A stretch of DNA of 64,000 bases from Woeseiaceae bacterium (GTDB lineage Bacteria; Pseudomonadota; Gammaproteobacteria; Steroidobacterales; Woeseiaceae). The position numbers and the translations under genes are program-made. Shown piece by piece: positions 11,437 through 37,648 of this stretch (position 1 is the first letter of the stretch; every line of letters starts with the position of its first letter). The DNA is taken from contig OZ246981.1 of assembly GCA_965232455.1 (NCBI GenBank), positions 3,963,911 to 4,027,910 on the forward strand, in the 5' to 3' direction. The notes below the pieces were generated by a model. The model saw nothing but the letters and a program-made list of their open reading frames with translations. It searched no databases and was not told the DNA's origin.

Positions 11437-13779
11437 CTATTTTTCGCTACCGGTTGAATCTTTCGCAAGCGCCTGCGCCTCCTCCATCAATGCCGCCGAA
11501 CGCTCGGCATCGCCGGTCGCCCGCGCGTATCTTGCCTGCAGCTCGAGAATCTTCGCGCTGGGTTCCTGCTCGATGACGTACCCGAGCAGCGGTTCGACGG
11601 CCGCGGTGTTTCCCTGATCGAGATACAGATTTGCGAGTTTTACCGCGATCTCCGTTTTCTCGGAGGAGAAACCCGTCGTCTCGACGTGCTCCAGCGCCTG
11701 TTCATAAAACTGAACGGCCTGGGGTACGTTCTCCTTCAACACGGCAACGTCCCCCGCGTACTGCATCGCTTCGATCGCGGGCTCGGGAAAATCCTCGGCC
11801 AGCGCGTCCGCAAGCACGGCGTGAATGCGTGACTCGGCGTCGTCGAGCTTGTTCTCGTCCTTGTCGAGCAGCGCCAGGCGCAGTTCGACCTGTGCGGCCC
11901 TGGAGCGATCTTCGATGGAAATGAAGACGTCACGTGATTCGGCAAACGCTTCGCGGGCGGCGGACATGTTGCCGAGCCCACGTTCCGCGGCCGCGAGCTG
12001 GGCGAGACCGGTGGCGATGAACAGTGCGTCGTTGGCCTCGCGCGCGATCTCGACCGCTTCGCTGGAGGCGGCTCTCGCATCCTCGAAGCGGTCCTCCCGC
12101 TCGTAGAGAACGGACAGCATGCCGAGGATCCGCCCCTGTCCGACGCGATCACCGATGTCGCGCCGGATGGCAAGCGACTGTAAATGCAGGTCTTCCGCTT
12201 CGACAAACCGCCCCTGCAGACGGCGCAGGAAGCCGTAATTGTTCAGCATCATGGCTTCGTTGCGCTTGTCGCCGATGCCGCGGAAACTGACCAACGCATC
12301 GTCGAGGTGCTCCTCGGCTTCGTCGAGTTTCCCGTCGTTCATCGCAATGTTTGCGAGCGTCGAATAGATCTGACCGGGCAGGAGCTCCCATTCGATTTGT
12401 CGAAAGGCGAGCGTCGCGCGCGCCAGCAGGTCGCGCGCCAGGGCGAAGTCGCGACGGTCCTTCGCGAGGATGGCCATCGAAACGGACAGGCGTCCGATTT
12501 CCAGCTTGTCGTCCACGCGTTCCGCGATCTCGATGCCCTGCCGATAGGTCGCGTCCGCCAGCTCGAGCCGCCCGGTGCGGTGATAGACCGTGCCGAGCTT
12601 GGCCAGGACTTCGGCATGCAGGCTGTCGCTGTTTTGCACGTCGTCACCGTCGAGAATGCGTTTGAACGCGGCCTCGGCCTCCTCCCATTCGCCTAAACGA
12701 TACGCGCAGTCGGCACGCCCGATGCGGGCGCGCGTCACGCCCTGGTTGCGCGCCAGCACGACGTCGAACAGGGGTTTTGCCTCGGCGCAGCGGCCCTCGA
12801 GTGCAATGCTCATCGCGCGCGCGTACGCCTCGTTGATGAACGGGTCGTCGTCGATTGCGTCGATGCCTTCGGCCAGCGCCTGGCGCCGGCCGCTCAACAG
12901 CGTCGTCACGCCGCGAACCATGCCTTGAACGAGCGCGGTGCTTTGCTCCGACACCATCGTGGAGCGGTTGCGCCGCCCGTCGTTTCCCACCAGCGTGTAA
13001 TTCAGCCGCAGCCCGCCGACCGTCTGCTCCAGTTCCGAGACCAGCACGTGACTTGCTCCGTGCGAGCGGCGGAGCCGATCGATGTGCGCCTCGGCGTCGG
13101 CCGCGTCGAGGCTGCCGCTCCAGCCCATGTTCTCGACGAAGCTGACGACGTCGGCGGCGCGGACGACGTTCAGTTGGGCGGCGTCGACGAACAGGTCGTT
13201 GGCCAAACCCATCAAGCCGAACTTCGCCCAGCCGAGGTCGGCGTCATCGGTGTTGTTGACGACAGGTAACACCGCGATGCGGACGTTGCCGTCGTCCACC
13301 GGTTGGCGCCAGAGCGCCGCGATGCCGACGGCAAGCAGAACGGCCGCGGCCAGTAACAGCCGGCGCAGCCGGGAAGGCATTCTGCTCCCGGAAGCCTCCG
13401 CGGTCGATCGCGCGGCCGGTTCGGCGGCCTGCCCGGTGTCCCTCACGTCCTCCTCGAGCGGCGCGATGAACTGGTAGCCGTGCCCGTGCACGGTGCGGAT
13501 CACCGCCTGCTCGTCGGCGTCGTCGCCGACGGCCCGCCGGGCTTTCATGATGGCCCGGGTCAGCGACGTCTCGGACACGACCACGGTTTTCCAGACCGCG
13601 TCCTGGAGAGCGTCCTTGTCCACCGCCCGGTGACGCTCCTCGATCAGGAACGCCAGCAGATCGAAGACCCTGGGCTCCAGCTGAACCTGCTTGCCGCCCC
13701 GGGTGAGCCGGCGAGTGTCGAGATCGAACTCGCAGTCGCGAAATCGATAATACTTTTTTGCATCGGGCGCCACGGTCAT
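11437..13779 (-). CDS. Winged-helix (OmpR/CadC trans_reg_C) membrane-anchored transcriptional regulator with TPR repeats
   Basis: The N-terminus YRFRDCEFDLDTRRLTRGGKQVQLEPRVFDLLAFL is a trans_reg_C DNA-binding domain. A single TM segment and many TPR-like repeats follow. Confidence 0.65.
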   Translation of the reverse strand: MTVAPDAKKYYRFRDCEFDLDTRRLTRGGKQVQLEPRVFDLLAFLIEERHRAVDKDALQDAVWKTVVVSETSLTRAIMKARRAVGDDADEQAVIRTVHGHGYQFIAPLEEDVRDTGQAAEPAARSTAEASGSRMPSRLRRLLLAAAVLLAVGIAALWRQPVDDGNVRIAVLPVVNNTDDADLGWAKFGLMGLANDLFVDAAQLNVVRAADVVSFVENMGWSGSLDAADAEAHIDRLRRSHGASHVLVSELEQTVGGLRLNYTLVGNDGRRNRSTMVSEQSTALVQGMVRGVTTLLSGRRQALAEGIDAIDDDPFINEAYARAMSIALEGRCAEAKPLFDVVLARNQGVTRARIGRADCAYRLGEWEEAEAAFKRILDGDDVQNSDSLHAEVLAKLGTVYHRTGRLELADATYRQGIEIAERVDDKLEIGRLSVSMAILAKDRRDFALARDLLARATLAFRQIEWELLPGQIYSTLANIAMNDGKLDEAEEHLDDALVSFRGIGDKRNEAMMLNNYGFLRRLQGRFVEAEDLHLQSLAIRRDIGDRVGQGRILGMLSVLYEREDRFEDARAASSEAVEIAREANDALFIATGLAQLAAAERGLGNMSAAREAFAESRDVFISIEDRSRAAQVELRLALLDKDENKLDDAESRIHAVLADALAEDFPEPAIEAMQYAGDVAVLKENVPQAVQFYEQALEHVETTGFSSEKTEIAVKLANLYLDQGNTAAVEPLLGYVIEQEPSAKILELQARYARATGDAERSAALMEEAQALAKDSTGSEK

Positions 13780-22571: not shown

Positions 22572-22858
22572 TTACGAATGGAACGAACACAAGCCCCCTA
22601 CCGTTCGTACGCCGTATGTCCGCGGCCCTTGCCGCCACCCGCAGGACCGATCGCCGAATGATAGCACCGTGACGCGGACGGACGGCAAACAGGTCGGCGC
22701 AAACCTCTCGAACGACCTATGTTCTGTTAAATTTCGCTTGATAGCTGCCCGTTGCTGTCATAGTTTGGCTGTAGTGACAAAGGCAAACCCGTCGAAAGAC
22801 GGGGACGCAAAACCACCGGTCTAAGGACGTTCTTCGTCTACGACAGCGGAGTCGCCGG

Positions 22859-24073
22859 ATGAACCTAGCGGACACAGGGTTGCGCAAACAACCGTTTCGT
22901 ACCCATGGCAAGCCACTGGTGCTTGTGCCGTATGCCGCACAGAGAAACGCCGCCCGGTTTCTCGACGATACCTGCGTCAACAAACACGGCCTGGGACTAT
23001 TTCACGGCCCGCCCCTCTCGGGAAAAACGACGATCGTGCAGCAATTCGCAAGTTCGCTGCCGCGCGACCACGCAGTTGCCGTCGTCGATGGAGCGCGCAC
23101 GGATCCGGACAAGCTACTGAAGCAGATTCTGAGCCAGTTCGGTTACGACCAGGGCGTCAATACGGCCAGTGAACGTTTCAACATGATCCGGGTGGTCGCC
23201 TTGCAGCAGGCCGCAACCGGCCGGCCGCCGGTGCTCGTCATCGAGAACGTCCACAAGATGACGCCGATACTGCTGGAGATGCTTTGCGAGCTGGCCGAGA
23301 TGTCGGTCGATAGAACCAGCGCACTCAGGATCATTCTTGTGAGTGATCATCCGATGCTGCCCATTGTGGAAGCGCCGGCGATGCAATCGATCGAGAACCG
23401 CCTGACCGGCAAGTTCCTCTTGAAGCCGTTGACGCGGACCGAGACGGCTATTTACGCGCACAAGAAACTCAAGAGCGGCGGCTGTTACAACCCGAGGGCC
23501 GTGATGCCGCCGGCGGTGTGCAATCGCTTGCATTCGGCGTCGGGCGGCTGGCCCGGCGTTATCGACCGGCTGGCAATGATGGCGCTGGCGAAAGCCGAAC
23601 ACGTTCCCTTGCTGGTCGAACACATCCCGAAAAGGCTCCAGAAAGACAAGAAGCCACCCAACGTCGTCACCCCCCCACCGCAGCTCATCCTGACCTACAA
23701 GCACAAGATGCTGGGAAAGATCAGTCTCGACAGGCCGCGCTATTTGATCGGCCGAAACGCGCATTGCGAAATCGAGATCGTCCACGAATGGATCAGCCGG
23801 CAACACGCCATCATCGTCCGCAACAAGAAGTCCACCGTGATCGTGGACCTGAAGAGTCGCAACGGGACGTACGTTAATGACCAACGCGTCAAGAGCCACG
23901 TCCTCATCAACAACGACATCGTTTCCCTGGGCGATCATCGCCTCAAATTCGTCGACCCGTCGGCCACACACCGGACCAGCCTGCGCGGCGCCGGATGGGA
24001 CGCCACCACGCTGACCCAATCTATCCGGGATTCTCGCAAGGTGTTGATCAGGAAGTTGAGGAGGACGAGTTGA
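22859..24073 (+). CDS. AAA ATPase (ExeA/GspA-like) with C-terminal FHA domain
   Basis: Walker A GPPLSGKTT, then an ExeA-like AAA region. The C-terminal region has an FHA-like beta-sandwich pattern (RYLIGRN...NGTYVN). Confidence 0.55.
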   Translation: MNLADTGLRKQPFRTHGKPLVLVPYAAQRNAARFLDDTCVNKHGLGLFHGPPLSGKTTIVQQFASSLPRDHAVAVVDGARTDPDKLLKQILSQFGYDQGVNTASERFNMIRVVALQQAATGRPPVLVIENVHKMTPILLEMLCELAEMSVDRTSALRIILVSDHPMLPIVEAPAMQSIENRLTGKFLLKPLTRTETAIYAHKKLKSGGCYNPRAVMPPAVCNRLHSASGGWPGVIDRLAMMALAKAEHVPLLVEHIPKRLQKDKKPPNVVTPPPQLILTYKHKMLGKISLDRPRYLIGRNAHCEIEIVHEWISRQHAIIVRNKKSTVIVDLKSRNGTYVNDQRVKSHVLINNDIVSLGDHRLKFVDPSATHRTSLRGAGWDATTLTQSIRDSRKVLIRKLRRTS

Positions 24074-26366: not shown

Positions 26367-26525
26367 CGCCAGCAAAGATGTTTCAATGGAGCGGCTATTA
26401 CCGGCGAAATAGCCCGGCTGTAAACCGGGTGCCTCTTGGCTGTGCGGGTTCACCAAACGCGCCAGCGTTTAGGACGCGCGAAGCGCGCCCCGCAGGGGTG
26501 AGAATCGGCGCCAGACGATTCTAAT
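26367..26525 (+). tRNA. tRNA-Tyr(GTA) interrupted by a 76-nt structured module in the T-loop
   Basis: Acceptor GGAGCGG/CTGCTCC, discriminator A and CCA. Anticodon arm CCCGG-CTGTAAA-CCGGG and a long variable arm. After GGTTCA the T-loop is split by AAACGCGCCAGCG...GATTCTAATC. Confidence 0.5.
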
Positions 26526-26934: not shown

Positions 26935-27066
26935 CGCGATCCTCCACCAGATGCTGCGGCCGTCGTTTAAAGGCCAGGACAACGGTTGTTGATTCGCGGC
27001 TTCGCCGCTCACCTTTCACGCGTACTCGCTGACGCTCGTACGCCTGTTGGACGATTATGCCGGGTT
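26935..27066 (+). tRNA. tRNA-like gene with about 55-nt internal insertion (identity unresolved)
   Basis: Acceptor GCGGCCG/TGGCCGT with two G:U pairs, T-arm CCGGG-TTCAAGT-CCCGC, CCA. The 132-nt length implies an intervening segment. Confidence 0.35.
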
Positions 27067-27893: not shown

Positions 27894-28173
27894 CGATTCT
27901 TTCAGAGGGTGCCAGATTCAAGGTGCTTCCTATCGAAGCCGGGCCACCAGACCCGTCGCAGATGCTGGGAGACGTAAGTCCGGGGGTGAAATACCCCTGA
28001 TTACTGAAGGCTGCGCTGTTTGGACAGCAAGCAGTCTTGAACCGCGACCGGCATAGTCGGCCGACAGAAGTACGAGCGTCAGCGAGCACGCCCGAAGGGT
28101 GAGCGGCGCTGCCGCGAATCAAAACTGGGCCGGTGGCAACGCCGATGTAGCTGAGAAGGATTAGCGCCGAGTT
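27894..28173 (+). other. Unresolved tRNA-like/structured block containing another module copy (28060-28125)
   Basis: Multiple hairpins (CCGGGGGTGAAATACCCCTG, TCGGCCGA). Module core CCCGAAGGGTGAGCGGCGCTGCCGCGAATC. No canonical cloverleaf recovered by eye. Confidence 0.3.
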
Positions 28174-29519: not shown

Positions 29520-29731
29520 CTGGGAGTAGCTCAGGCTGGTCAGAGTACTCGGTTTGGACCCCAATTTGCCCACGTTGCCGAAAGAACGAAACGGATCGGT
29601 GCAAATTGATCTTTAGTGGAATATGCGGCAGTGCGCTTCCACTCGACCCACTAAAGATCAATCCGCATCCACCCTCTACTTTCTTTGGAAGCACTAGGGC
29701 GGATTGGGTTCGAATCCAGCCTTCCAGACCA
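29520..29731 (+). tRNA. tRNA-like gene interrupted by about 140 nt, including a 15-bp inverted repeat and the CTAAAGATCAATCCGCA element
   Basis: Acceptor CTGGGAG/CTTCCAG plus CCA. Canonical 5' D-arm GCTC-AGGCTGGTCA-GAGT. Internal IR ATTGATCTTTAGTGG...CCACTAAAGATCAAT. 3' GGGTTCGAATCC. Confidence 0.35.
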
Positions 29732-29740
29732 AATTCGAAG

Positions 29741-29971
29741 GGAGACTCGCAAGGTCGGCGTGCTTATCCGGTTTGATCCGAGGAGCGCGCAGCGCGACGA
29801 CAGACGCACGCAGTGCGCCCGCAGGGTGAGCGGCGCAGCCGCGAATCCACCCGGTGATGTCCTCACGGGCGTGGGGGTTCAACCGAGGCGCGTAGCGCCG
29901 ACAGACGGATTCGCGAAGCGAATGCCGCCCGAAGGGCGAGCGCAGCGAGTCCATCCCCTCAGTCTCCTCCA
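29741..29971 (+). tRNA. tRNA-like gene with two module insertions
   Basis: Acceptor GGAGACT/AGTCTCC plus CCA, T-stem GGGGG/CCCTC. Module copies at about 29795-29860 and 29882-29950 (cores CCCGCAGGGTGAGCGGCGCAGCCGCGAATCC and CCCGAAGGGCGAGCGCAGCGAGTC). Confidence 0.35.
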
Positions 29972-29980
29972 AAAGACGAT

Positions 29981-30056
29981 GGTGAGCCTAGCTTAACGGC
30001 AAAGCCCCAGGCCGTGACCCTGGTTGATACCGGTTCAAGTCCGGTGGTTCACCCCA
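29981..30056 (+). tRNA. tRNA-His(GTG)
   Basis: Encoded G-1 opposite C73. Acceptor GTGAGCC/GGTTCAC, perfect anticodon arm CCAGG-CCGTGAC-CCTGG, T ACCGG-TTCAAGT-CCGGT, CCA. Confidence 0.75.
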
Positions 30057-30060
30057 AATT

Positions 30061-30184
30061 GGAGAAGTGGCCGAGTGGCTTAAGGCGCTCGTTAGCTAAA
30101 CTAGAGGGGCGCTGTGTTCCACCCAGGTTCGCACCGAGGAGCGTAGCGACGACAGGCCGAAGGCCCATCCTGGCTTCTCCTCCA
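30061..30184 (+). tRNA. Class II (Leu/Ser-type) tRNA with 34-nt insert in the T-loop
   Basis: Perfect acceptor GGAGAAG/CTTCTCC, class II D-arm GCCGAGTGGCTTAAGGC, T-stem CCAGG/CCTGG. T-loop TTCG-[CACCGAGGAGCGTAGCGACGACAGGCCGAAGGCC]-CAT, CCA. Confidence 0.45.
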
Positions 30185-30188
30185 ACAT

Positions 30189-30328
30189 CCGCCTGTAGCT
30201 CAGAAGGAGCAGAGCAGCTTGTTTGACTCGCTTCGTTCACCCTGCGGACGCACTGCGTGCTTCTGTTGGCGCTTTGCGCCTCGGTGCGAACCAGCAGGCC
30301 GGGGGTTCAAGTCCCTCCAGGCGCTCCA
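30189..30328 (+). tRNA. tRNA-like gene with about 65-nt insertion between anticodon region and T-arm
   Basis: D GCTC-AGAAGGAGC-AGAGC, T GGGGG-TTCAAGT-CCCTC, acceptor CCGCCTG/CAGGCGC with a 1:72 mismatch, CCA. Confidence 0.35.
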
Positions 30329-30332
30329 CTTT

Positions 30333-30406
30333 CCGCTCTTGGCATAGTGGCTGTGCACCTGGCTTTTACCCAGGTGACGGGAGTTCGATTCTCTCAGGGC
30401 GGACCA
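30333..30406 (+). tRNA. tRNA-Lys(TTT), second copy
   Basis: Acceptor CCGCTCT/AGGGCGG, perfect anticodon arm CCTGG-CTTTTAC-CCAGG, T GGGAG-TTCGATT-CTCTC, CCA. Confidence 0.7.
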
Positions 30407-30414
30407 CACAACAT

Positions 30415-30487
30415 GCGGGCATAGCTCAACTGGCAGAGCGCGACGGTGCCAATGTCGAGGTTGTGGACTCGGTCTCCACTGCCCGCT
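30415..30487 (+). tRNA. tRNA-Gly(GCC), second copy (no encoded CCA)
   Basis: Perfect acceptor GCGGGCA/TGCCCGC, D GCTC-AACTGGCA-GAGC, loop GTGCCAA, atypical T-loop CTCGGTC. Confidence 0.65.
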
Positions 30488-30629
30488 CCCAGTCCGCCCA
30501 CGGGGTTGCGTTACTCGGCAACGGCCATTGCGGACTGACATTTATTGCGCTAAAGATCAATCCGCATCAACCATTCTTCCACATTCATCATCGAGGGCGG
30601 ATTGGGTTCGATCCCGGCCCTCTCGACCA
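30488..30629 (+). other. tRNA-like unit carrying the second repeat family (CTAAAGATCAATCCGCA...GGGCGGATTGGGTTCGATCCC)
   Basis: 8-bp stem CAATCCGC/GCGGATTG encloses a variable loop. Ends ...GGCCCTCTCGACCA. Confidence 0.3.
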
Positions 30630-31429: not shown

Positions 31430-32572
31430 ATGTGGTTCATGCAAAAATTCATCGTGCGCAAGCACGAACGCGGTCTCCTGTTTAAGGACGGAGACTTCAT
31501 CAAGTTCCTGGAAGCAGGAACTTATCGCTACTTTGGCCTGCGCAGCCGCTACGCGGTAGAGCGTTTCGACCTGTCGGTCGCCGCGTTCGAGCACCGCCTG
31601 GCCGACTACCTGGTCGAGGCTGAACGCGCCGAGGTCGATCGTCTGTTTCACGTCGTTGAGACCCATGCCGACGAAGTCGCGCTGGTCTACCTCAACGAAC
31701 GTGCCGCAGCGATTCTCGGCCCGGCGGAGCGCAAGCTCTACTGGAAAGGCGTGGTTAAAGTTCGCATCGAACGCTTCGACCTCAATGAGGGCATCGCGCT
31801 GGATGCACGCCTGACCAAGCGCCTCGTCAACGGCCGCGATGCACAAGTGCTTGCGGTTGCGGGCAAGGCCGTCTACGCCCGCGTCGTTCCGGACGGTCAT
31901 GTTGGCCTGCTGTACGTTGACGGTGAACTCGCCGAAACCCTGGCGGCCGGCCTGCACGCCTACTGGAACGTTGCCCACGCCGTTGGCGTGGAGCTTGTGG
32001 ACCTGCGCGTCAAGGCACTGGAGGTTCAGGGCCAGGAAATCCTGACCAAGGACAAAGTGGCGCTGCGTATCAACGTGACCGCTACCTACCAGTACGTCGA
32101 CGCGGCGAAAGCCGTTCGCGCGGTCAAGGACCCGCTGGATCAGCTGTACAAAGAGATCCAGTTCGGTCTGCGCGCGGCGGTCGGTACCCGCAAGCTGGAC
32201 GCGCTGCTCGAGGATAAAACCGCAATCGACCGCGACATCGCGGATCACCTCGGCAAGCGTTTCGCTGAGATCGGCCTCAGCGTGATCAGCGTAGGCGTGA
32301 AAGACATCATCCTGCCCGGCGACATGAAGGACCTGCTGGGCAAGGTGGTGGAAGCCGAAAAAGCGGCACAAGCGAACGTCATTCGCCGCCGCGAAGAGAC
32401 CAACGCAACCCGATCACTTCTGAACACCGCAAAAGTGATGGAAAGCAACACCGTTGCGCTGCGTCTCAAGGAACTCGAGACCCTGGAGAAGGTTACTGAA
32501 AACGTCGGTAACCTGTCTGTCGTTGGTGGTCTCGACGGACTGCTGAATGGACTGGTGAACATCAAACAGTGA
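31430..32572 (+). CDS. SPFH/band-7 (slipin-like) domain protein
   Basis: GAAGGAGAA RBS before ATG 31430. Band-7 core and C-terminal coiled-coil typical of slipin/HflKC-like proteins. The longer six-frame ORF is trimmed. Confidence 0.65.
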   Translation: MWFMQKFIVRKHERGLLFKDGDFIKFLEAGTYRYFGLRSRYAVERFDLSVAAFEHRLADYLVEAERAEVDRLFHVVETHADEVALVYLNERAAAILGPAERKLYWKGVVKVRIERFDLNEGIALDARLTKRLVNGRDAQVLAVAGKAVYARVVPDGHVGLLYVDGELAETLAAGLHAYWNVAHAVGVELVDLRVKALEVQGQEILTKDKVALRINVTATYQYVDAAKAVRAVKDPLDQLYKEIQFGLRAAVGTRKLDALLEDKTAIDRDIADHLGKRFAEIGLSVISVGVKDIILPGDMKDLLGKVVEAEKAAQANVIRRREETNATRSLLNTAKVMESNTVALRLKELETLEKVTENVGNLSVVGGLDGLLNGLVNIKQ

Positions 32573-32628: not shown

Positions 32629-32768
32629 CTCAGTGGACAGAGCGCGACTATGCGAAGGTCGAGGTCACAGGTTCACAAAACGCGCCAGCGATTTGGACGC
32701 ACATAGTGCGCCCCGAAGGGGCGAGAGTCGCCCATAGGCGATTCGAGTCAATCTTGTCAGCCGTACCA
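32629..32768 (+). tRNA. tRNA-Arg(GCG) with 66-nt module in the T-loop
   Basis: Perfect acceptor ACGGCTG/CAGCCGT, D GCTC-AGTGGACA-GAGC, anticodon arm CGACT-ATGCGAA-GGTCG. T-stem ACAGG/CTTGT with the loop split as TTCA-[66 nt]-AAT, CCA. Confidence 0.5.
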
Positions 32769-32776
32769 AACATTGA

Positions 32777-32903
32777 TCGGCGCTCGTCCAACGGCAGGAT
32801 GCGAGACTTTGAATCTCGAGATCGCGGTTCGCACCGAGGCGCGTAGCGCCGACAGACGCACGAAGTGCGCCCGCAGAGCAAGCGAAGCGAGTCAATCCAC
32901 GGC
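32777..32903 (+). tRNA. tRNA-Gln(TTG) with 56-nt module in the T-loop
   Basis: Acceptor TCGGCGC/GCGCCGG, perfect anticodon arm CGAGA-CTTTGAA-TCTCG. T-loop TTCG-[CACCGAGGCGCGTAGCGCC...GCGAGTC]-AAT, CCA. Confidence 0.5.
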
Positions 32904-33085
32904 GCCGGGCCAAATTCGTCCGCGTTGTTAATCGAGGATCCGATGGACAGCACGGATTTGTCTTTAGTGGTTTACGTGTAAGTGCGTCGGCGCCACTACC
33001 ACGAAAGTCGAAACAACCCCTGGGTCAGTCGTCTGACGGTAAGACGGCGGATTCGAGCGCCAAGGAACGAACTGCTAAAGAAACA

Positions 33086-33478
33086 TCATGGCTTAAATGT
33101 GACTACCAAAACGATCACCGTCACAAGCACCAATCCTAGTGGCAAGAGAAAATGCCCAATTGCCTCTGGATCGGTTGCTCCTGATGTGGAGCGGCGCAGC
33201 TTTCCTGCCAACACGCCGTGTAATCCAGACAGAATCAACACCAGAGGGATCTTTATCGCTAGCCAGGACTGTGCGAACCAGCCCCCCTGAACCGCGAGCA
33301 GGATGCCGAATACCCAGGCAGCCACCATAGCAGGCGACGTTATGATCCGATCATAAGTCTTCAGCTGTTTCAAGAACGATAGGACGGGGTGTCTCAAGGA
33401 TAGGGCCACAGCCACCATGCCACCGATCCACACAAACAACGACACCAAGTGTGCGGCTTTAGTGAGTGCATAAATCAT
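33086..33478 (-). CDS. Small multi-TM membrane protein (CopD/HemJ-like)
   Basis: Four predicted TM helices. Start overlaps the upstream stop by 4 nt. Confidence 0.35.
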   Translation of the reverse strand: MIYALTKAAHLVSLFVWIGGMVAVALSLRHPVLSFLKQLKTYDRIITSPAMVAAWVFGILLAVQGGWFAQSWLAIKIPLVLILSGLHGVLAGKLRRSTSGATDPEAIGHFLLPLGLVLVTVIVLVVTFKP

Positions 33479-33771
33479 TGTTGCGTGGATGCCTCCGTAC
33501 TTCGACCGCGTAGCCATCGTTCATTGACGAAACCGCCCATTGGAATCAGGGCACCGACGAACAATCGGAAGGCCCCTATTCCGTTGATTAGTCCCTCTGC
33601 CCAAGATCGCACAACAAACCAGAGGAACACCATGAACATCAGTCCATGCACTGGTCCCACAACGGAGACCACCCATGGATCTCCGACGATGTACTTGATC
33701 GGCATCGCGACGCAGAAAAGCGCTAACAGCGTCACAGCCTCAGCTAACGCTGCGCGCCGAAGACCCGTCAT
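33475..33771 (-). CDS. Small membrane protein (DUF3817-like)
   Basis: Two to three hydrophobic helices. No recognisable similarity. Confidence 0.35.
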   Translation of the reverse strand: MTGLRRAALAEAVTLLALFCVAMPIKYIVGDPWVVSVVGPVHGLMFMVFLWFVVRSWAEGLINGIGAFRLFVGALIPMGGFVNERWLRGRSTEASTQQ

Positions 33772-34000
33772 AGCGTGGTGCTAACTCCAAGCTTCGTTGT
33801 CAACTAAAAAACCTCGCGACATCGAATTCCCCGGGGTACAACCAATACCAACTCGCCACGTAGAGCGCTGAGAAAACTACGATTGAAATCGCGATCAGGA
33901 GACGGCGTTCTATAGCATTCATACTGGAAATAATGCTGGACATCGGATATGGCGTAAATGACAATGTTCCGACAATATCGGCCATAATCTCCTGGAGACA

Positions 34001-34999
34001 ATGAAGAAAGCAGCAGCTAATGCGAGGCGAGGCGTCCATCGGCGTGTCGTGTTTGTCGCATTTCCTCACGTTGTTCTGCTGGATCTGATTGGCCCGTGGG
34101 AAGTGTTCTCCCTAGCGAACAAACTCGCCGATAGAGATTCGCCACCGTACGATTTGGAACTGGTGAGCGGCGCTAATTCTGCGAAGATTCCCTCCGGCGG
34201 TGGGATTTCATTGGAAAGTCACCGACCGGCGAAGAACTGCCGGGGAGCTATCGATACGCTGATCGTTCCGGCGACTGATTGGGCGCGGGCCTCAGAGGCG
34301 CAACAATTCTCGTCCGTCTTACAGCGGCTGGCACAGCGGTCTCATCGTATCGTTTCAATCTGCGGCGGTGCTTTTCTCCTGGCAGAGGCTGGACTCCTTG
34401 ATGGCAAGAAAGCAACGACGCATTGGCGTGGAACTGAAGATTTGGCCACACGCTTTCCAAAGGTCGACGTTCAAGCCGACTCAATTTTTGTGAAGGACGG
34501 AAATACCTATACGTCTGCTGGTGTTACCGCAGGTATAGACCTTGCCCTAGCGCTTGTCGAAGAGGATCTTGGACAGGCAGTAGCACTGGATTGCGCCCGT
34601 AACCTGGTCGTTTTCATGCGTCGCCCGGGCGGACAGTCACAATTCAGCGCCACTTTGGAATCGCAACATGCTGAACGGGACGTCATCAACGAGTTGGTAG
34701 CGTGGGCCGCCGATAACCTCGGCAATGACCTTTCCGTTCAGGTACTGGCTGAGCGCGCTCACATGAGCCTACGCAACTTCTCTCGTGTTTTTCGAGCTGA
34801 GGTTGGTCAAACGCCTGCCGCATTCGTCGAAAAGCTGCGAGTGGACGCGACGCGGCAACGCCTCGAAGAGACGGACGAATCAATCGATGAGATCTCCAAG
34901 CACTGCGGCTTTCGCAGCGCAGACTCGATGAGGCGTTCATTTCAACGCGTCGTGAAAGTAGCTCCCAGTGACTACCGTCAACGGTTCCGCAGGCTTTGA
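34001..34999 (+). CDS. GlxA-family transcriptional regulator (DJ-1/PfpI domain plus AraC-type HTH)
   Basis: DJ-1-like N-terminus (SICGGAFLLAEAGLLDG) and C-terminal AraC HTH. Confidence 0.8.
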   Translation: MKKAAANARRGVHRRVVFVAFPHVVLLDLIGPWEVFSLANKLADRDSPPYDLELVSGANSAKIPSGGGISLESHRPAKNCRGAIDTLIVPATDWARASEAQQFSSVLQRLAQRSHRIVSICGGAFLLAEAGLLDGKKATTHWRGTEDLATRFPKVDVQADSIFVKDGNTYTSAGVTAGIDLALALVEEDLGQAVALDCARNLVVFMRRPGGQSQFSATLESQHAERDVINELVAWAADNLGNDLSVQVLAERAHMSLRNFSRVFRAEVGQTPAAFVEKLRVDATRQRLEETDESIDEISKHCGFRSADSMRRSFQRVVKVAPSDYRQRFRRL

Positions 35000-35111
35000 C
35001 ACCTTCATGCCCCTACTCCACGCCATACCGTCGGAGTTGTCGTCCCAGTGGGTTAATCCGAACCAAGGCTAGAAATCGCGACAATCATAAGATTGCCGAA
35101 ACGGCAAACTT

Positions 35112-35186
35112 ATTCCTGAATCGGCAGACAAAAGCACCGAGCTTCTAACTCGGGGATTGCAGGTTCAACTCCTGCCGGGGGTACCA
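35112..35186 (+). tRNA. tRNA-Arg(TCT)-like, weak acceptor
   Basis: Perfect anticodon arm CCGAG-CTTCTAA-CTCGG and T-arm GCAGG-TTCAACT-CCTGC plus CCA. The 5' acceptor ATTCCTG pairs only through three G:U wobbles. Confidence 0.35.
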
Positions 35187-35278: not shown

Positions 35279-35390
35279 GCGGATCGTGGTAGTGGCTGCG
35301 GTGCAGCGACCAGCAGCGCACTAAAGATCAATCCGCACCGGCCTTGTCCGCATTGTTCGGCAAAATTGGGCGGATTGGGGGCTGCGCACC
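35279..35390 (+). other. Third copy of the CTAAAGATCAATCCGCA...GGGCGGATTGGGG repeat element ending in GCTGCGCACCA
   Basis: 8-bp stem CAATCCGC/GCGGATTG with a different loop. tRNA-like 3' tail. Confidence 0.3.
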
Positions 35391-35635
35391 AAATCAGGGC
35401 ACGTTGGCAAATGGATGCCGCCACCTAAAACGTAGGCCGCAGGTGGTCCGGATAACACCGGTCGTTGTCTAAGAGGTCGGGAGGGTATGGTTGAGGATGC
35501 AGGCGACTGCTCTGCGTAAGGGTTACTCGCTGGCGCGCGTTTTCCAACAACCGATCTGCCGGTAGTAATGCCCCGGTTACAACGGTATGCGGGTTCGATA
35601 CCCGTCGTGTCCACCACAAAACTGCACGATCCACA

Positions 35636-36220
35636 TTGTCACCGCGAGAAATGACGATGAGAATTCTAAAACTGGATGTAGGCGGACGACCGATCGCGTG
35701 GATTACACGCGAGGACGGCGCTTTGCTGTACTGCCGCGAGCAGGTTGCGTGGGAGGCCGGCGTTGAAGAGATCGTTCTTCGTGGTGGCTACTCACAGCGC
35801 ACTGGTCTTCGGTCAGTCCTGCGCGTGAATTCGATCGTCGCTACGACTTCGGTAGACAAAGGTGCAGATGACTGGGCCGGTACTCCGGCCCTGACCAACC
35901 CGCGCCTGTTCCGTCGAGACGACTACATGTGTCTCTACTGCGGCGAGGTGCTGCCACCACGACTACTCACTCGTGACCACGTGGTTCCCGTATTTTCGGG
36001 TGGCCGCGACGATTGGGGGAACGTTGTGACGGCGTGCCGTCCCTGCAATCACAGGAAAGACAACCATGCGCTGGAAACAATCGGAATGCGACTGCTCGCC
36101 GTGCCCTACGCACCGAATCGTGCGGAAGGCCTGATTCTGGAAAACCGCCGCATTCTGGCGGACCAGATGGAGTTTCTGCGATCGCGCGTCGGCTCAGGCA
36201 GCCGGCTGCGTGTACCATGA
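35636..36220 (+). CDS. HNH endonuclease
   Basis: C-terminal HNH motif YCGEVL...DHVVPVFSGGRDDWGNVVTACRPCNHRK. Confidence 0.65.
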   Translation: MSPREMTMRILKLDVGGRPIAWITREDGALLYCREQVAWEAGVEEIVLRGGYSQRTGLRSVLRVNSIVATTSVDKGADDWAGTPALTNPRLFRRDDYMCLYCGEVLPPRLLTRDHVVPVFSGGRDDWGNVVTACRPCNHRKDNHALETIGMRLLAVPYAPNRAEGLILENRRILADQMEFLRSRVGSGSRLRVP

Positions 36221-36238: not shown

Positions 36239-37648
36239 ATGTCATATTTGCACGAAGTACAAAAAGTCTCGGACGCACATTACGTGCTGCCAAAGATCGG
36301 CGACATGCGTACCGAGGTTCACGCGTACCTGTCCGAGACGCTGTTTGCGCAGACCGATGAGGCGCTCTGGCGTCAGGCGGCTCAGGCCGCGGCTTACCCG
36401 GGCATGATTGGCCTGTACCTGATGCCGGATACCCACCTGGGCTACGGGATCCCCGTGGGCGGCGTTGCCGTGACGGAAGACGTCATTATCCAGGCCGGCA
36501 GCGGCTACGACATCTCATGCGGCGTCGTATACCTGCGGGTGCCTGGCCTGACGGCCGCCGACATCGCCGACTGGGACAAGCGCAAGTGCTGGATCGATGA
36601 CGTCGAACTCCGCATCGCAACCGGAATCGGTAGCGACCGGCCGAAGCACATGCCGCGCCTGTCGGAGTCGAAGATCGAAGACATCTTTCGCTATGGCGCG
36701 AAGGCGGTCGGCGTGCGCGCGGACGTCTGCGAGCGGCAGTACATCGACGTGGACGACTCGGTGCTGGATACCGAGCGTGTACAGCGTGCCCGCGACAAGG
36801 CCTGCCCGCAGATCGGTTCGGTCGGCGGCGGCAACCATTTCGTCGAGATGCAGGTTGACGTCAACGACGGTTCGGTGTGGGTGATGATTCACTGTGGAAG
36901 CCGTGGTTACGGCTGGCAAACTGCGAACCATTACTTCTACGCCGGCGCGGAACTGCGCGGCCTGGCAAAGAACCGTCGGGAAGAATCGTGGCTGCGCGCC
37001 GACGAGCCTCTGGGGCGGGAGTACTGGGCGCATCACAATTCCGCGGCGAACTATGCGGTCGCAAACCGCCACATAATCGTGCGCGGCGTGCAGAAAGCGC
37101 TGGAAAACGTCTTTAAGGCAACGGGTGAGGTTTTCTACGAAATCTCGCACAACCTGGTGCAGGAAGAGACGCTGGTGCTGCCGGACGGCACGACCAAGAA
37201 AGGATTCGTACACCGCAAGGGCGCGACGCGTGCATTCCCGGCAGGGCATCCCGACCTGGTTGGAACCAAGTGGGAGGGGACGGGACACCCGTGCCTGGTT
37301 CCCGGTTCGATGCTGGACGGCGCCGCCATCCTGTATCCGTTGGAAGGGGCATACCAGTCGGGTTGCTCGGTGAACCACGGTTCGGGCCGTGTCATGGCGC
37401 GCGGTAGGGCGAAGCGTGAATTGGCAGAGATTCACGACGACATCGACGCCGAGATGCGCGACATCACCCGTACGTTGGGCGGTGTGGAGGTTCGAGGAAT
37501 CGTAGGCAACACGGAGCGGACTCCGCTCGACGAGTGTGGTCACGTCTACAAGGACCTCGATGAAGTGCTCTGCGTGCTGGAAGCGGAAGGAATCGCGAAA
37601 ATCGCTCACCGGATGTATCCGGTGGCGAACATCAAGGGCACCGACTGA
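36239..37648 (+). CDS. rtcB: RNA-splicing ligase RtcB (3'-phosphate/5'-hydroxyl RNA ligase)
   Basis: PDTHLGYGIPVGGV, GGGNHFVEMQ and the C-terminal HNH/GSGR-type His-rich motifs characteristic of RtcB. 469 aa. Confidence 0.85.
   Translation: MSYLHEVQKVSDAHYVLPKIGDMRTEVHAYLSETLFAQTDEALWRQAAQAAAYPGMIGLYLMPDTHLGYGIPVGGVAVTEDVIIQAGSGYDISCGVVYLRVPGLTAADIADWDKRKCWIDDVELRIATGIGSDRPKHMPRLSESKIEDIFRYGAKAVGVRADVCERQYIDVDDSVLDTERVQRARDKACPQIGSVGGGNHFVEMQVDVNDGSVWVMIHCGSRGYGWQTANHYFYAGAELRGLAKNRREESWLRADEPLGREYWAHHNSAANYAVANRHIIVRGVQKALENVFKATGEVFYEISHNLVQEETLVLPDGTTKKGFVHRKGATRAFPAGHPDLVGTKWEGTGHPCLVPGSMLDGAAILYPLEGAYQSGCSVNHGSGRVMARGRAKRELAEIHDDIDAEMRDITRTLGGVEVRGIVGNTERTPLDECGHVYKDLDEVLCVLEAEGIAKIAHRMYPVANIKGTD

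Follow-up and report, generated by a model that had tools for sequence, protein, structure and literature searches.

A family of extragenic palindromic repeats in a decaying tRNA gene array of a Woeseiaceae bacterium

Repetitive extragenic palindromic sequences (REPs) and the inverted REP doublets known as REPINs are mobilised by RAYT transposases in Pseudomonas and Enterobacteria (PMC3116915, PMC3337134). Here, we describe a palindromic repeat unit, referred to as module M, in a 64-kb stretch of the genome of a Woeseiaceae bacterium (assembly GCA_965232455.1, contig OZ246981.1, positions 3,963,911 to 4,027,910). This whole stretch is called the window below, and coordinates are counted from its first letter. 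We propose that M is probably a non-coding, extragenic palindromic repeat, REP/REPIN-like or similar to miniature inverted-repeat transposable elements (MITEs), of Woeseiaceae-type marine-sediment Gammaproteobacteria, which landed in a tRNA gene array and overwrote genes in it. M is a unit of about 64 nt, composed of CACTAAAGATCAATCCGCACC, approximately 27 variable nt and GGGCGGATTGGG. Like REPs and REPINs, it is non-coding, extragenic, abundant and palindromic, its hairpin is kept by compensatory change, it occurs as singlets, as inverted doublets with a short spacer and in clusters, it lacks target-site duplications and it is restricted to a lineage. Unlike REPs, which are compact palindromes of 20-35 nt, the ~64-nt M has a stem of 8-10 bp around an unconstrained centre of about 30 nt; furthermore, its consensus contains no GTAG on either strand, and copies of M are often set among classical, genuine GTAG-type REPs such as GGAGCGAGCTCCTAC. 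No RAYT (Y1 HUH transposase) gene flanked by M was found in approximately 700 kb of collected loci, although a single-copy gene could lie outside these fragments.

Bacterial interspersed mosaic elements (BIMEs) of E. coli resemble M in forming mosaic clusters outside genes, built of palindromic units interspersed with other short motifs, and in their tandem reiteration, but their sequences and unit sizes are different, and the partner motif of M can be the 3' fragment of a tRNA gene. Among MITEs with terminal inverted repeats are the Correia elements of Neisseria and the enterobacterial ERIC sequences. Dimers of M resemble them in that they are about 120-150 bp long, are non-coding, carry terminal inverted repeats (11 of 12 positions match) and recur in unrelated flanks; in contrast to MITEs, M has no target-site duplication, its insertions lose target DNA and most copies are half-elements. 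An autonomous parent element with M ends was not found in the window or in the collected loci. Downstream of the E. coli tyrT gene, 178-bp repeats are present, each with a copy of the tRNA-Tyr 3' end, and tandem units with a duplicate of the tRNA 3' terminus are likewise found with M behind tRNA genes at three loci (L050, L174, L236; L numbers denote loci collected by our scans). To our knowledge, the tyrT repeats involve no interspersed palindromic module and are a single locus rather than a genome-wide family. With integron attC sites, M has in common a two-box inverted repeat and a variable centre, but it has neither the RYYYAAC/GTTRRRY cores nor an adjacent integrase. Since a GTAG head, a RAYT gene and target-site duplications were not found, M is not assigned to any named family; we regard it as a new family within an established class of elements.

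The array in which M resides is of the published "L-array" type, for which neighbourhoods that recurrently include an HNH endonuclease and rtcB, as well as pseudogenes within the arrays, have been reported (PMC8421152). That study contains no description of an invasion by palindromic repeats, and the array described here is decaying when compared with clean orthologues.

tRNA genes overwritten by copies of M

A dense array of tRNA genes lies on the plus strand of the window at about 26.4-30.9 kb, 32.6-32.9 kb and 35.1-35.6 kb. It contains more than 30 tRNA genes, encloses a gene for an SPFH (slipin) protein and is directly followed by genes for an HNH protein and RtcB (Table 1). ARAGORN called 19 tRNAs in the window and Rfam a similar set, and irregular units lie between the called genes. 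A profile hidden Markov model of M, run with nhmmer on the window and the collected loci, placed three forward and three reversed copies in the array and, by the same search, none in the rest of the window. The three forward copies had been noticed previously in a reading made without database searches (the sequence-only reading); all sequences described there are present, and E values between 3e-13 and 6e-13 place the repeat far beyond chance. The third copy was said to start at 35327, which is 6 nt late, as CTAAAGATCAATCCGCA begins at 35321. Similarly, a half-site GTCTTTAGTGG exists, at 32960-32970 rather than at 32955, and is part of the reversed module at 32.9 kb.

Copies 1 and 2 are head-to-head inverted dimers with their GGG ends pointing outwards. 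Their termini are CCCAATTTGCCC/GGGCGGATTGGG for copy 1 and CCCAGTCCGCCC/GGGCGGATTGGG for copy 2, the latter matching at 11 of 12 positions. The inner arms of the copy 1 dimer form the perfect 15-bp inverted repeat that had been described before (ATTGATCTTTAGTGG, 29605-29619, and CCACTAAAGATCAAT, 29648-29662), and this dimer of about 150 bp folds with a z-score of -5.4 against mononucleotide shuffles. The copy 2 dimer matches a metagenomic locus (L188) over its whole length (76% over 121 nt), and its type, a variant arm pair next to a forward M, was found again in more than 12 unrelated metagenomic flanks. Single modules are found as copy 3 and at 32.9 kb, the two having a 5' extension (GGTGGTAGTGGC...) in common, and a 52-nt inverted match (71%) exists between the 32.9-kb copy and 35284-35335; the GGTGGTAGTGGC extension was found again upstream of M in L166 and L192. 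We also observed that, towards its 3' end, the variable centre could pair with the acceptor 3' strand of the tRNA remnant next to it in copy 1 (29685-29691/29721-29727, 7 bp) and copy 2 (30590-30598/30618-30626, 6 bp); this complementarity was not seen again at other loci and is probably due to chance.

Clean orthologous loci were found through relatives of the array-embedded SPFH protein, which are 92-96% identical and lie on long contigs. Three of these loci (L241, L243 and L244) have a syntenic array with the same gene order and compact canonical genes, and none of the three arrays contains a copy of M. The orthologous order is Ile(GAU)-Pro(UGG)-...-Ser(UGA)-His-Ser(GCU)-Arg-Lys(UUU)-Gly-Met(CAU)-Val(UAC), then the SPFH gene, then Arg(GCG)-Gln(UUG)-Trp-Cys-Ile-Arg(UCU)-Leu(UAG)-Leu(UAA)-Leu(CAA)-Leu(CAG), followed by HNH-RtcB. 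The genes for tRNA-Pro(UGG), tRNA-Met(CAU), tRNA-Leu(UAA) and tRNA-Leu(CAA), of which only parts are seen in the window, are all intact in the orthologues.

Four comparisons of a filled with an empty site were possible, and the target lost 11, ~52, ~136 and 8 nt, respectively. In copy 1, a 145-nt dimer (29562-29706) stands in place of 11 nt, GAGAGGCCGCT, of tRNA-Pro(UGG), and from GGTTCGAATCC onward the 3' remnant of this gene is identical to L243 and differs from L241 by 1 nt. For copy 2, the dimer starts at the CCA position of an intact tRNA-Gly(GCC) gene (30415-30489), on its CC. Here, about 52 nt are lost, made up of the final A of this CCA, the intergenic spacer and the tRNA-Met(CAU) gene in its 5' part, and a 115-nt dimer is found instead; L241 and L243 have an intact tRNA-Met(CAU) gene between tRNA-Gly and tRNA-Val(UAC). 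In the case of copy 3, the stretch between nt 8 of tRNA-Leu(UAA) and the T-stem of tRNA-Leu(CAA), about 136 nt, has given way to a 92-nt element; in L241 and L243, both genes follow tRNA-Leu(UAG) and are intact. Finally, the reversed 32.9-kb copy sits exactly after the CCA of tRNA-Gln, where L243 has 8 nt and then tRNA-Trp; the 5' remnant of tRNA-Trp begins at 33022 in the window. At every joint, 2-4 nt are in common with the element end (CC... / ...GG). No target-site duplication was detected in the four comparisons, nor were shared flanks seen around dimers elsewhere.

Judged by these alignments, the T-loops and 3' tails beside the copies are shown to be the remains of tRNA genes that M has overwritten, and the copies to be insertions over parts of once intact tRNA-Pro(UGG), tRNA-Met(CAU), tRNA-Leu(UAA) and tRNA-Leu(CAA) genes. 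The sequence-only reading had placed the repeat inside tRNA-like units, at conserved positions relative to the tRNA bodies, and had a T-loop and a 3' tail following each copy. The former is not supported by the clean orthologues, according to which ordinary tRNA-Pro, tRNA-Met and tRNA-Leu genes were partly overwritten, and the latter applies to copies 1 and 2, whereas copy 3 is followed by only the last 14 nt of a tRNA gene and by no T-loop.

An exhaustive single-deletion scan of the tRNA-like units, scored with ARAGORN, yielded for copy 1 only a mismatched Pro(UGG), in which the anticodon stem stays mismatched, and restored nothing for copy 2; together with the orthologue alignments, this shows that the affected genes yield no tRNA by any excision. 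From units with other insert families, the same scan restored canonical Tyr, Ser(GCU), Arg(GCG) and Gln(UUG) genes.

Table 1. Positions of M copies, tRNA gene remnants and neighbouring protein genes in the window
Feature	Position	Strand	Description	nhmmer E
tRNA-Pro(UGG) 5' remnant	29520..29561	+	nt 1-42, through the anticodon loop; 2-5 point differences from L241, L243	
Copy 1, M(rev)	29557..29620	-	terminal arm CCCAATTTGCCC (29560-29571), variable centre, arm GCAAATTGATCTTTAGTGG (29601-29619); stem CAATTTGC/GCAAATTG, a doubly compensated variant of CAATCCGC/GCGGATTG	1.5e-6
Copy 1, M(fwd)	29648..29708	+	CCACTAAAGATCAATCCGC, 30-nt centre, GGGCGGATTGGG; CTAAAGATCAATCCGCA at 29651-29667, GGGCGGATTGGG at 29697-29708	6e-13
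tRNA-Pro(UGG) 3' remnant	29707..29731	+	T-loop, T-stem 3' strand, acceptor 3' strand, ACCA	
Copy 2, variant M'(rev)	30486..30549	-	CCCAGTCCGCCC, centre, GCGGACTGACATTTATTGCG	2e-3 (30486-30538)
Copy 2, M(fwd)	30548..30606	+	nhmmer and exact motifs; CTAAAGATCAATCCGCA at 30550-30566, GGGCGGATTGGG at 30595-30606	4e-13
Orphan tRNA-Met(CAU) 3' remnant	30605..30629	+	T-loop to CCA; only GGTTCGATCCCGGCCCTCTCGACCA kept	
SPFH (slipin) protein gene	31430..32572		inside the array	
Reversed module with 5' extension	32910..33004	-	CCAAATTCGTCC ... ACGGATTTGTCTTTAGTGG ... GGCGCCACTACCACGA; begins on the CCA of the tRNA-Gln(UUG) unit; module at 32910-32971	0.17, weak (32913-32970)
tRNA-Leu(UAA), first 7 nt	35279..35285	+	GCGGATC; alignment to L241, L243	
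Copy 3, forward module with 5' extension	35286..35379	+	GTGGTAGTGGCTGCGG ... CACTAAAGATCAATCCGC ... GGGCGGATTGGG; module at 35317-35379; CTAAAGATCAATCCGCA at 35321-35337, GGGCGGATTGGG at 35368-35379	3e-13 (35317-35381)
tRNA-Leu(CAA), last 14 nt	35378..35391	+	GGGGCTGCGCACCA; identical to the 3' end in L241, L243	
HNH protein gene	35636..36220		directly downstream of the array	
RtcB gene	36239..37648		PF01139, E 6e-88	

Range, structure and placement of the family

A scan with a gapped pattern (AAAGATCAATCSGC, 18-48 nt, GCSGATTG) found M at at least 120 loci in metagenome contigs and gave 0 matches in viral contigs, and the profile gave 166 matches at E<1e-3 in 122 sources. Nearly all of the 120 loci from a 14-mer scan of the genome collection were chance matches; genuine M was present in six (L013, L022, L034, L050, L072, L097), of which L013, L050, L072 and L097 derive from three Woeseiaceae metagenome-assembled genomes (MAGs), and the other two from one unclassified proteobacterial MAG and one MAG labelled Sediminibacterium.

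The consensus over 142 exact-pattern copies, the set used for the consensus, spacing and centre analyses (n=169 for the profile-based set), reads gCACTAAAGATCAATCCGCACC ... G.GGGCGGATTGGG. The 21-nt left arm, CACTAAAGATCAATCCGCACC, and the right arm, GGGCGGATTGGG, pair over 8-10 bp and are 31-33 nt apart in 132 copies. The centre is near-random and no two positions in it covary as base pairs in these copies, so that the idea of a structured centre was dropped. The 8-bp stem was analysed in 179 distinct sequences, including diverged copies, and is paired to about 99%, with 9 broken cells. Five of its eight pairs together show 22 compensatory double changes, compared with shuffle means of at most 0.7 per pair; examples are CAATCGGC/GCCGATTG, CAGTCCGC/GCGGACTG, CAATTTGC/GCAAATTG and AAATCTGC/GCAGATTT. 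It is these changes in other copies that bear out the earlier observation that the stem is kept while the loop varies, whereas the three forward copies of the window all have the stem CAATCCGC/GCGGATTG and, being identical in sequence, say nothing on their own about a conserved structure. Cells with G:T and A:C are equally frequent in the stem (6 versus 5), hence neither strand is favoured as RNA. In Rfam, nothing matched M at the gathering threshold, the only overlap being a spurious miRNA match (23.8 bits versus a gathering score of 80), and a terminator scan detected no intrinsic terminator at M hairpins, a reading that was rejected for this reason.

When genes were called crudely from GC3, not one of 143 copies was placed deep inside a likely coding sequence. 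Neither a recurrent protein family beside the copies nor a gene bracketed by inverted copies was found in the ~700 kb of loci. Copies are arranged as singlets, as tandem neighbours (28 pairs) and as inverted dimers of about 120-150 bp, singlets and tandems being commoner than inverted pairs, and the GGG ends of inverted pairs point outwards in 10 cases and inwards in 2. Arrays of the form [hairpin X - spacer - M]n with periods of 113-290 nt are present at seven loci (L050, L126, L131, L148, L162, L174, L192). At L072 (~847-905, minus-strand reading), one module is followed by five tandem copies of a 10-nt right-arm motif, GGGCCGATTG / GGGCGGATTG, and shorter reiterations (GGGCGGATTGGGGCGGATTGGG) occur in L131, L148, L201 and L216, which suggests slippage at the element end.

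With regard to tRNA genes, the family is biased towards them though not specific for them, and about 80-90% of the copies have no tRNA next to them. Where the two meet, the GGG end of M joins the tRNA gene at GG|TTCGA, that is, in the T-loop, or at the CCA end, both in the window and at at least 10 other loci. A fixed joint, ...GCGGATTG-GG-TTCGA followed by a T-loop-to-3' fragment, was found in 19 of the 142 exact copies and, by profile, in 16 of 169. A co-oriented tRNA lies within 400 nt upstream of 32 copies and an antisense tRNA upstream of 6; an antisense tRNA abuts the GGG end of 6 copies, in 5 cases precisely at the CCA. L184, a related array, has a reversed module exactly at the CCA after each of four different tRNAs. 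At six loci, a complete tRNA is followed by a spacer, M and a near-exact repeat of its own 3' end (L130 and L236, Asn; L146, Met; L174 and L218, Thr; L166, His), with 21-26 matched positions from the T-loop to the 3' end. The unit of spacer, M and tRNA 3' repeat is reiterated in tandem in L050, L174 and L236, and the spacers are locus-specific and show no relationship to one another when the tRNA targets differ. The view that the housekeeping loci in general go back to a second, tandem tRNA copy that was disrupted was considered and rejected, as a 5' remnant was found only in L097 (z = 6.7) and not at the Asn, Met and Thr(UGU) loci.

The sequence-only reading had regarded its proposal as incompatible with a generic, genome-wide REP/MITE-like repeat unrelated to tRNA genes. 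Such a repeat is largely what was found, abundant in metagenomes and Woeseiaceae and mostly without a neighbouring tRNA, apart from the 16-19 of ~142-169 copies that are joined at one fixed point to a T-loop fragment and the several reversed copies that abut a CCA. Its separation of this repeat, as a second family, from the T-loop inserts of the array agrees with our results, which point most likely to mobile DNA with a conserved hairpin. The interpretation is therefore partly supported: M is a distinct, probably mobile hairpin repeat, but no structured module internal to tRNAs.

Other features of the array and the window

Other inserts in the array are strings of GC-rich mini-hairpins of the GCGNAGC type, which lie in T-loops and some anticodon loops and whose removal in silico restores the genes. 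They are found at 26450-26524, 29775-29850, 29882-29955, 30129-30163, 32673-32747 and 32829-32891, with reversed copies at about 26988-27063, 28048-28122 and 30223-30292. The orthologous genes of L241, L243 and L244 do not contain them, and hairpin strings follow M in L180, L192, L204 and L239.

A segment of about 2 kb (~33060-35130) encodes a UPF0093 membrane protein (33086-33517, minus strand) and an AraC/DJ-1-PfpI regulator (34001-34999). Compared with L243, it has taken the place of the 3' part of tRNA-Trp, tRNA-Cys, tRNA-Ile(UAU) and the 5' part of tRNA-Arg(UCU). We considered a composite transposon bounded by the reversed copy at 32913 and the forward copy ending at 35381 and carrying the 2.3-kb AraC/UPF0093 segment. 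This was rejected because the interior keeps the native Trp remnant, Arg(UCU) remnant and Leu(UAG) in syntenic order, and because the 2-kb AraC/UPF0093 DNA is a separate insertion.

A further tRNA-like unit (35397-35616, plus strand) is about 220 nt long. Its acceptor strands (GGGCACG/CGTGTCC), T-arm and CCA are intact, and about 130 extra nt lie in the variable region; its match to the tmRNA model is weak (11 bits). In L242 (~11980-12060), the right arm of M abuts the T-loop of the orthologous unit, which is the last one there. The arrays of L241, L242 and L243 lie in differing gene neighbourhoods, and a tyrosine integrase gene (1567-2517) is located a few kb upstream in L243, which together suggests that the array is on a mobile island. 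Elsewhere in the window, a c-di-GMP-I-GGC riboswitch aptamer (22773-22860, plus strand; RF03167, 71.9 bits versus a gathering score of 59) was identified just upstream of an FHA/AAA ATPase gene (22859-24073), with a conserved match in L155 and L156.

Possible origins of M and its joints with tRNA genes

The replacement of target DNA, the 2-4 nt shared at the joints and the lack of target-site duplications argue for entry of M by template switching, microhomology-mediated repair or hairpin-directed single-strand transposition, and not by classical cut-and-paste. We propose that M spreads at the DNA level and in trans, without a gene of its own; in its inverted dimers, the outward GGG ends are placed as terminal inverted repeats are. 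On the simplest account, joints would form by short homology, with the T-loop sequence GGTTCGAATCC, common to all tRNA genes, and the CCA end as anchors. The recurrent GG|TTCGA joint could reflect the T-loop being the longest sequence that tRNA genes all have in common, or a preference for breaks or hairpins at this site. The redundancy of tRNA copies may be what lets M last within arrays and behind housekeeping tRNA genes; only insertions in redundant tRNA genes, that is, array copies and tandem duplicates, would survive.

Several observations weigh against M being a repeat of the REP/REPIN or MITE kind. All copies in the window are confined to the tRNA array, while L241 and L243 (21 kb each) are without any copy of M. 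The T-loop joint and the co-orientation patterns exceed what is expected from random insertion plus survival. The fixed spacing of 31-33 nt across a centre without conserved sequence is not what a MITE in decay usually shows, and it hints that a protein may gauge how far apart the arms are. In addition, no transposase, RAYT or parent element with M ends was found in the window or the ~700 kb of loci, and mobility is deduced from the distribution and from filled and empty sites, not from a mechanism. Arm positions that were not fixed by the search pattern are still 70-100% conserved (given as 70-90% for the 142 exact copies), figures that are upper bounds since the pattern used to seed the collection fixed most arm positions.

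Insertion into tRNA genes is an ordinary kind of event, whereas the preference of the GGG end for T-loop and CCA positions is unexplained. One might speculate that an activity specific for landmarks of tRNA genes, namely the 5' edge of the T-loop (G53/T54) and the CCA end, moves M and perhaps also the GC-hairpin T-loop inserts. A candidate would be a T-loop-directed nuclease or recombinase such as the array-linked HNH protein. We regard this as a rather unlikely possibility. If true, M would be a tRNA-gene-targeting mobile hairpin that erodes redundant tRNA genes and makes tRNA 3'-end duplications.

Alternatively, M could be the attachment-site hairpin or arm of small integrating elements, with a site-specific recombinase, integrase-like or working on folded single strands in the way that integron integrases use attC, joining the GGG end to the T-loop or CCA. 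Such a recombinase would create direct repeats of tRNA 3' ends and tandem units, as seen at the six loci with a complete tRNA and a repeat of its 3' end and in the tandem reiterations, and the invariable ...GCGGATTG-GG-TTCGA joint, the attC-like architecture with a variable centre of fixed length and the exact CCA abutment of the reversed copies in L184 are in line with it. However, the unrelated spacers leave no common element body and no integrase or other gene recurs beside the copies, which argues against a common integrating element, and the R'/R'' cores of integrons (GTTRRRY/RYYYAAC) are absent. The 80-90% of copies nowhere near a tRNA are not accounted for either, and the events in the window delete the target and leave the tRNA dead, whereas tRNA-targeting integrases restore the gene. 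We therefore consider this origin unlikely.

It is similarly improbable that M functions as an RNA hairpin in tRNA operons and elsewhere in the transcriptome, selected not as selfish DNA but as a processing, stability or termination signal. The compensatory changes in the stem, the location of copies at gene 3' ends (their GGG side faces a convergent gene in 40 cases and a co-directional one in 23), the co-orientation with the 32 upstream tRNAs, the reversed copies that begin exactly at a CCA in six cases and the many copies adjoining T-runs would all suit such a role. On the other hand, both orientations occur within one transcription unit, the equal numbers of G:T and A:C cells favour no strand, the ~30-nt loop fails the intrinsic-terminator scan and no Rfam family matches. 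Moreover, close relatives run the same array without M, and in the window M destroys genes instead of flanking them.

Scarcely credible is an intervening sequence that is excised from tRNA transcripts, the halves being rejoined by the neighbouring HNH endonuclease and RtcB ligase: both proteins are encoded directly downstream and other inserts of the array can be excised precisely in silico, but the deletion scan and the orthologue alignments, which refute it for the M family, exclude an intron, with essential parts gone (11 nt in Pro, the whole ~48 nt at the 5' side of Met and the greater part of two Leu genes) and no excision giving a tRNA, and long tRNA arrays generally have HNH and rtcB as neighbours, also where such inserts are missing (PMC8421152; L243, L244), so that their presence is not specific to M.

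Further candidates were rejected. The pairings of the centre with the acceptor 3' strand in copies 1 and 2, which would make M tRNA-like or a minihelix (TTGGAAG/CTTCCAG; GAGGGC/GCCCTC), are not found in L130, L146 and L174 and, since the conserved GGGC forms part of them, were treated as chance. A circularly permuted tRNA with AATCCGC-A-CC ... GCGGATT as acceptor strands has no equivalents of a T-arm or D-arm, and targeting of GTTC as by IS91-like elements or of a fixed tetranucleotide as by IS200/IS605-like elements was dismissed because flanks outside tRNA contexts show no conserved target.

Taken together, M as a probable extragenic palindromic repeat explains the partial calls of tRNA finders in this array, as several of its "tRNA-like units" are repeat-overwritten genes and not exotic tRNAs, split genes or introns. 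M is an undescribed and very abundant repeat family in Woeseiaceae-type sediment bacteria, which is useful for annotation, strain typing and the recognition of assembly breakpoints. The array provides a clean natural example of a long tRNA array that decays by repeat invasion and is intact in sister lineages. If the joining of M to T-loop and CCA positions reflects targeting, this would be a new insertion specificity.

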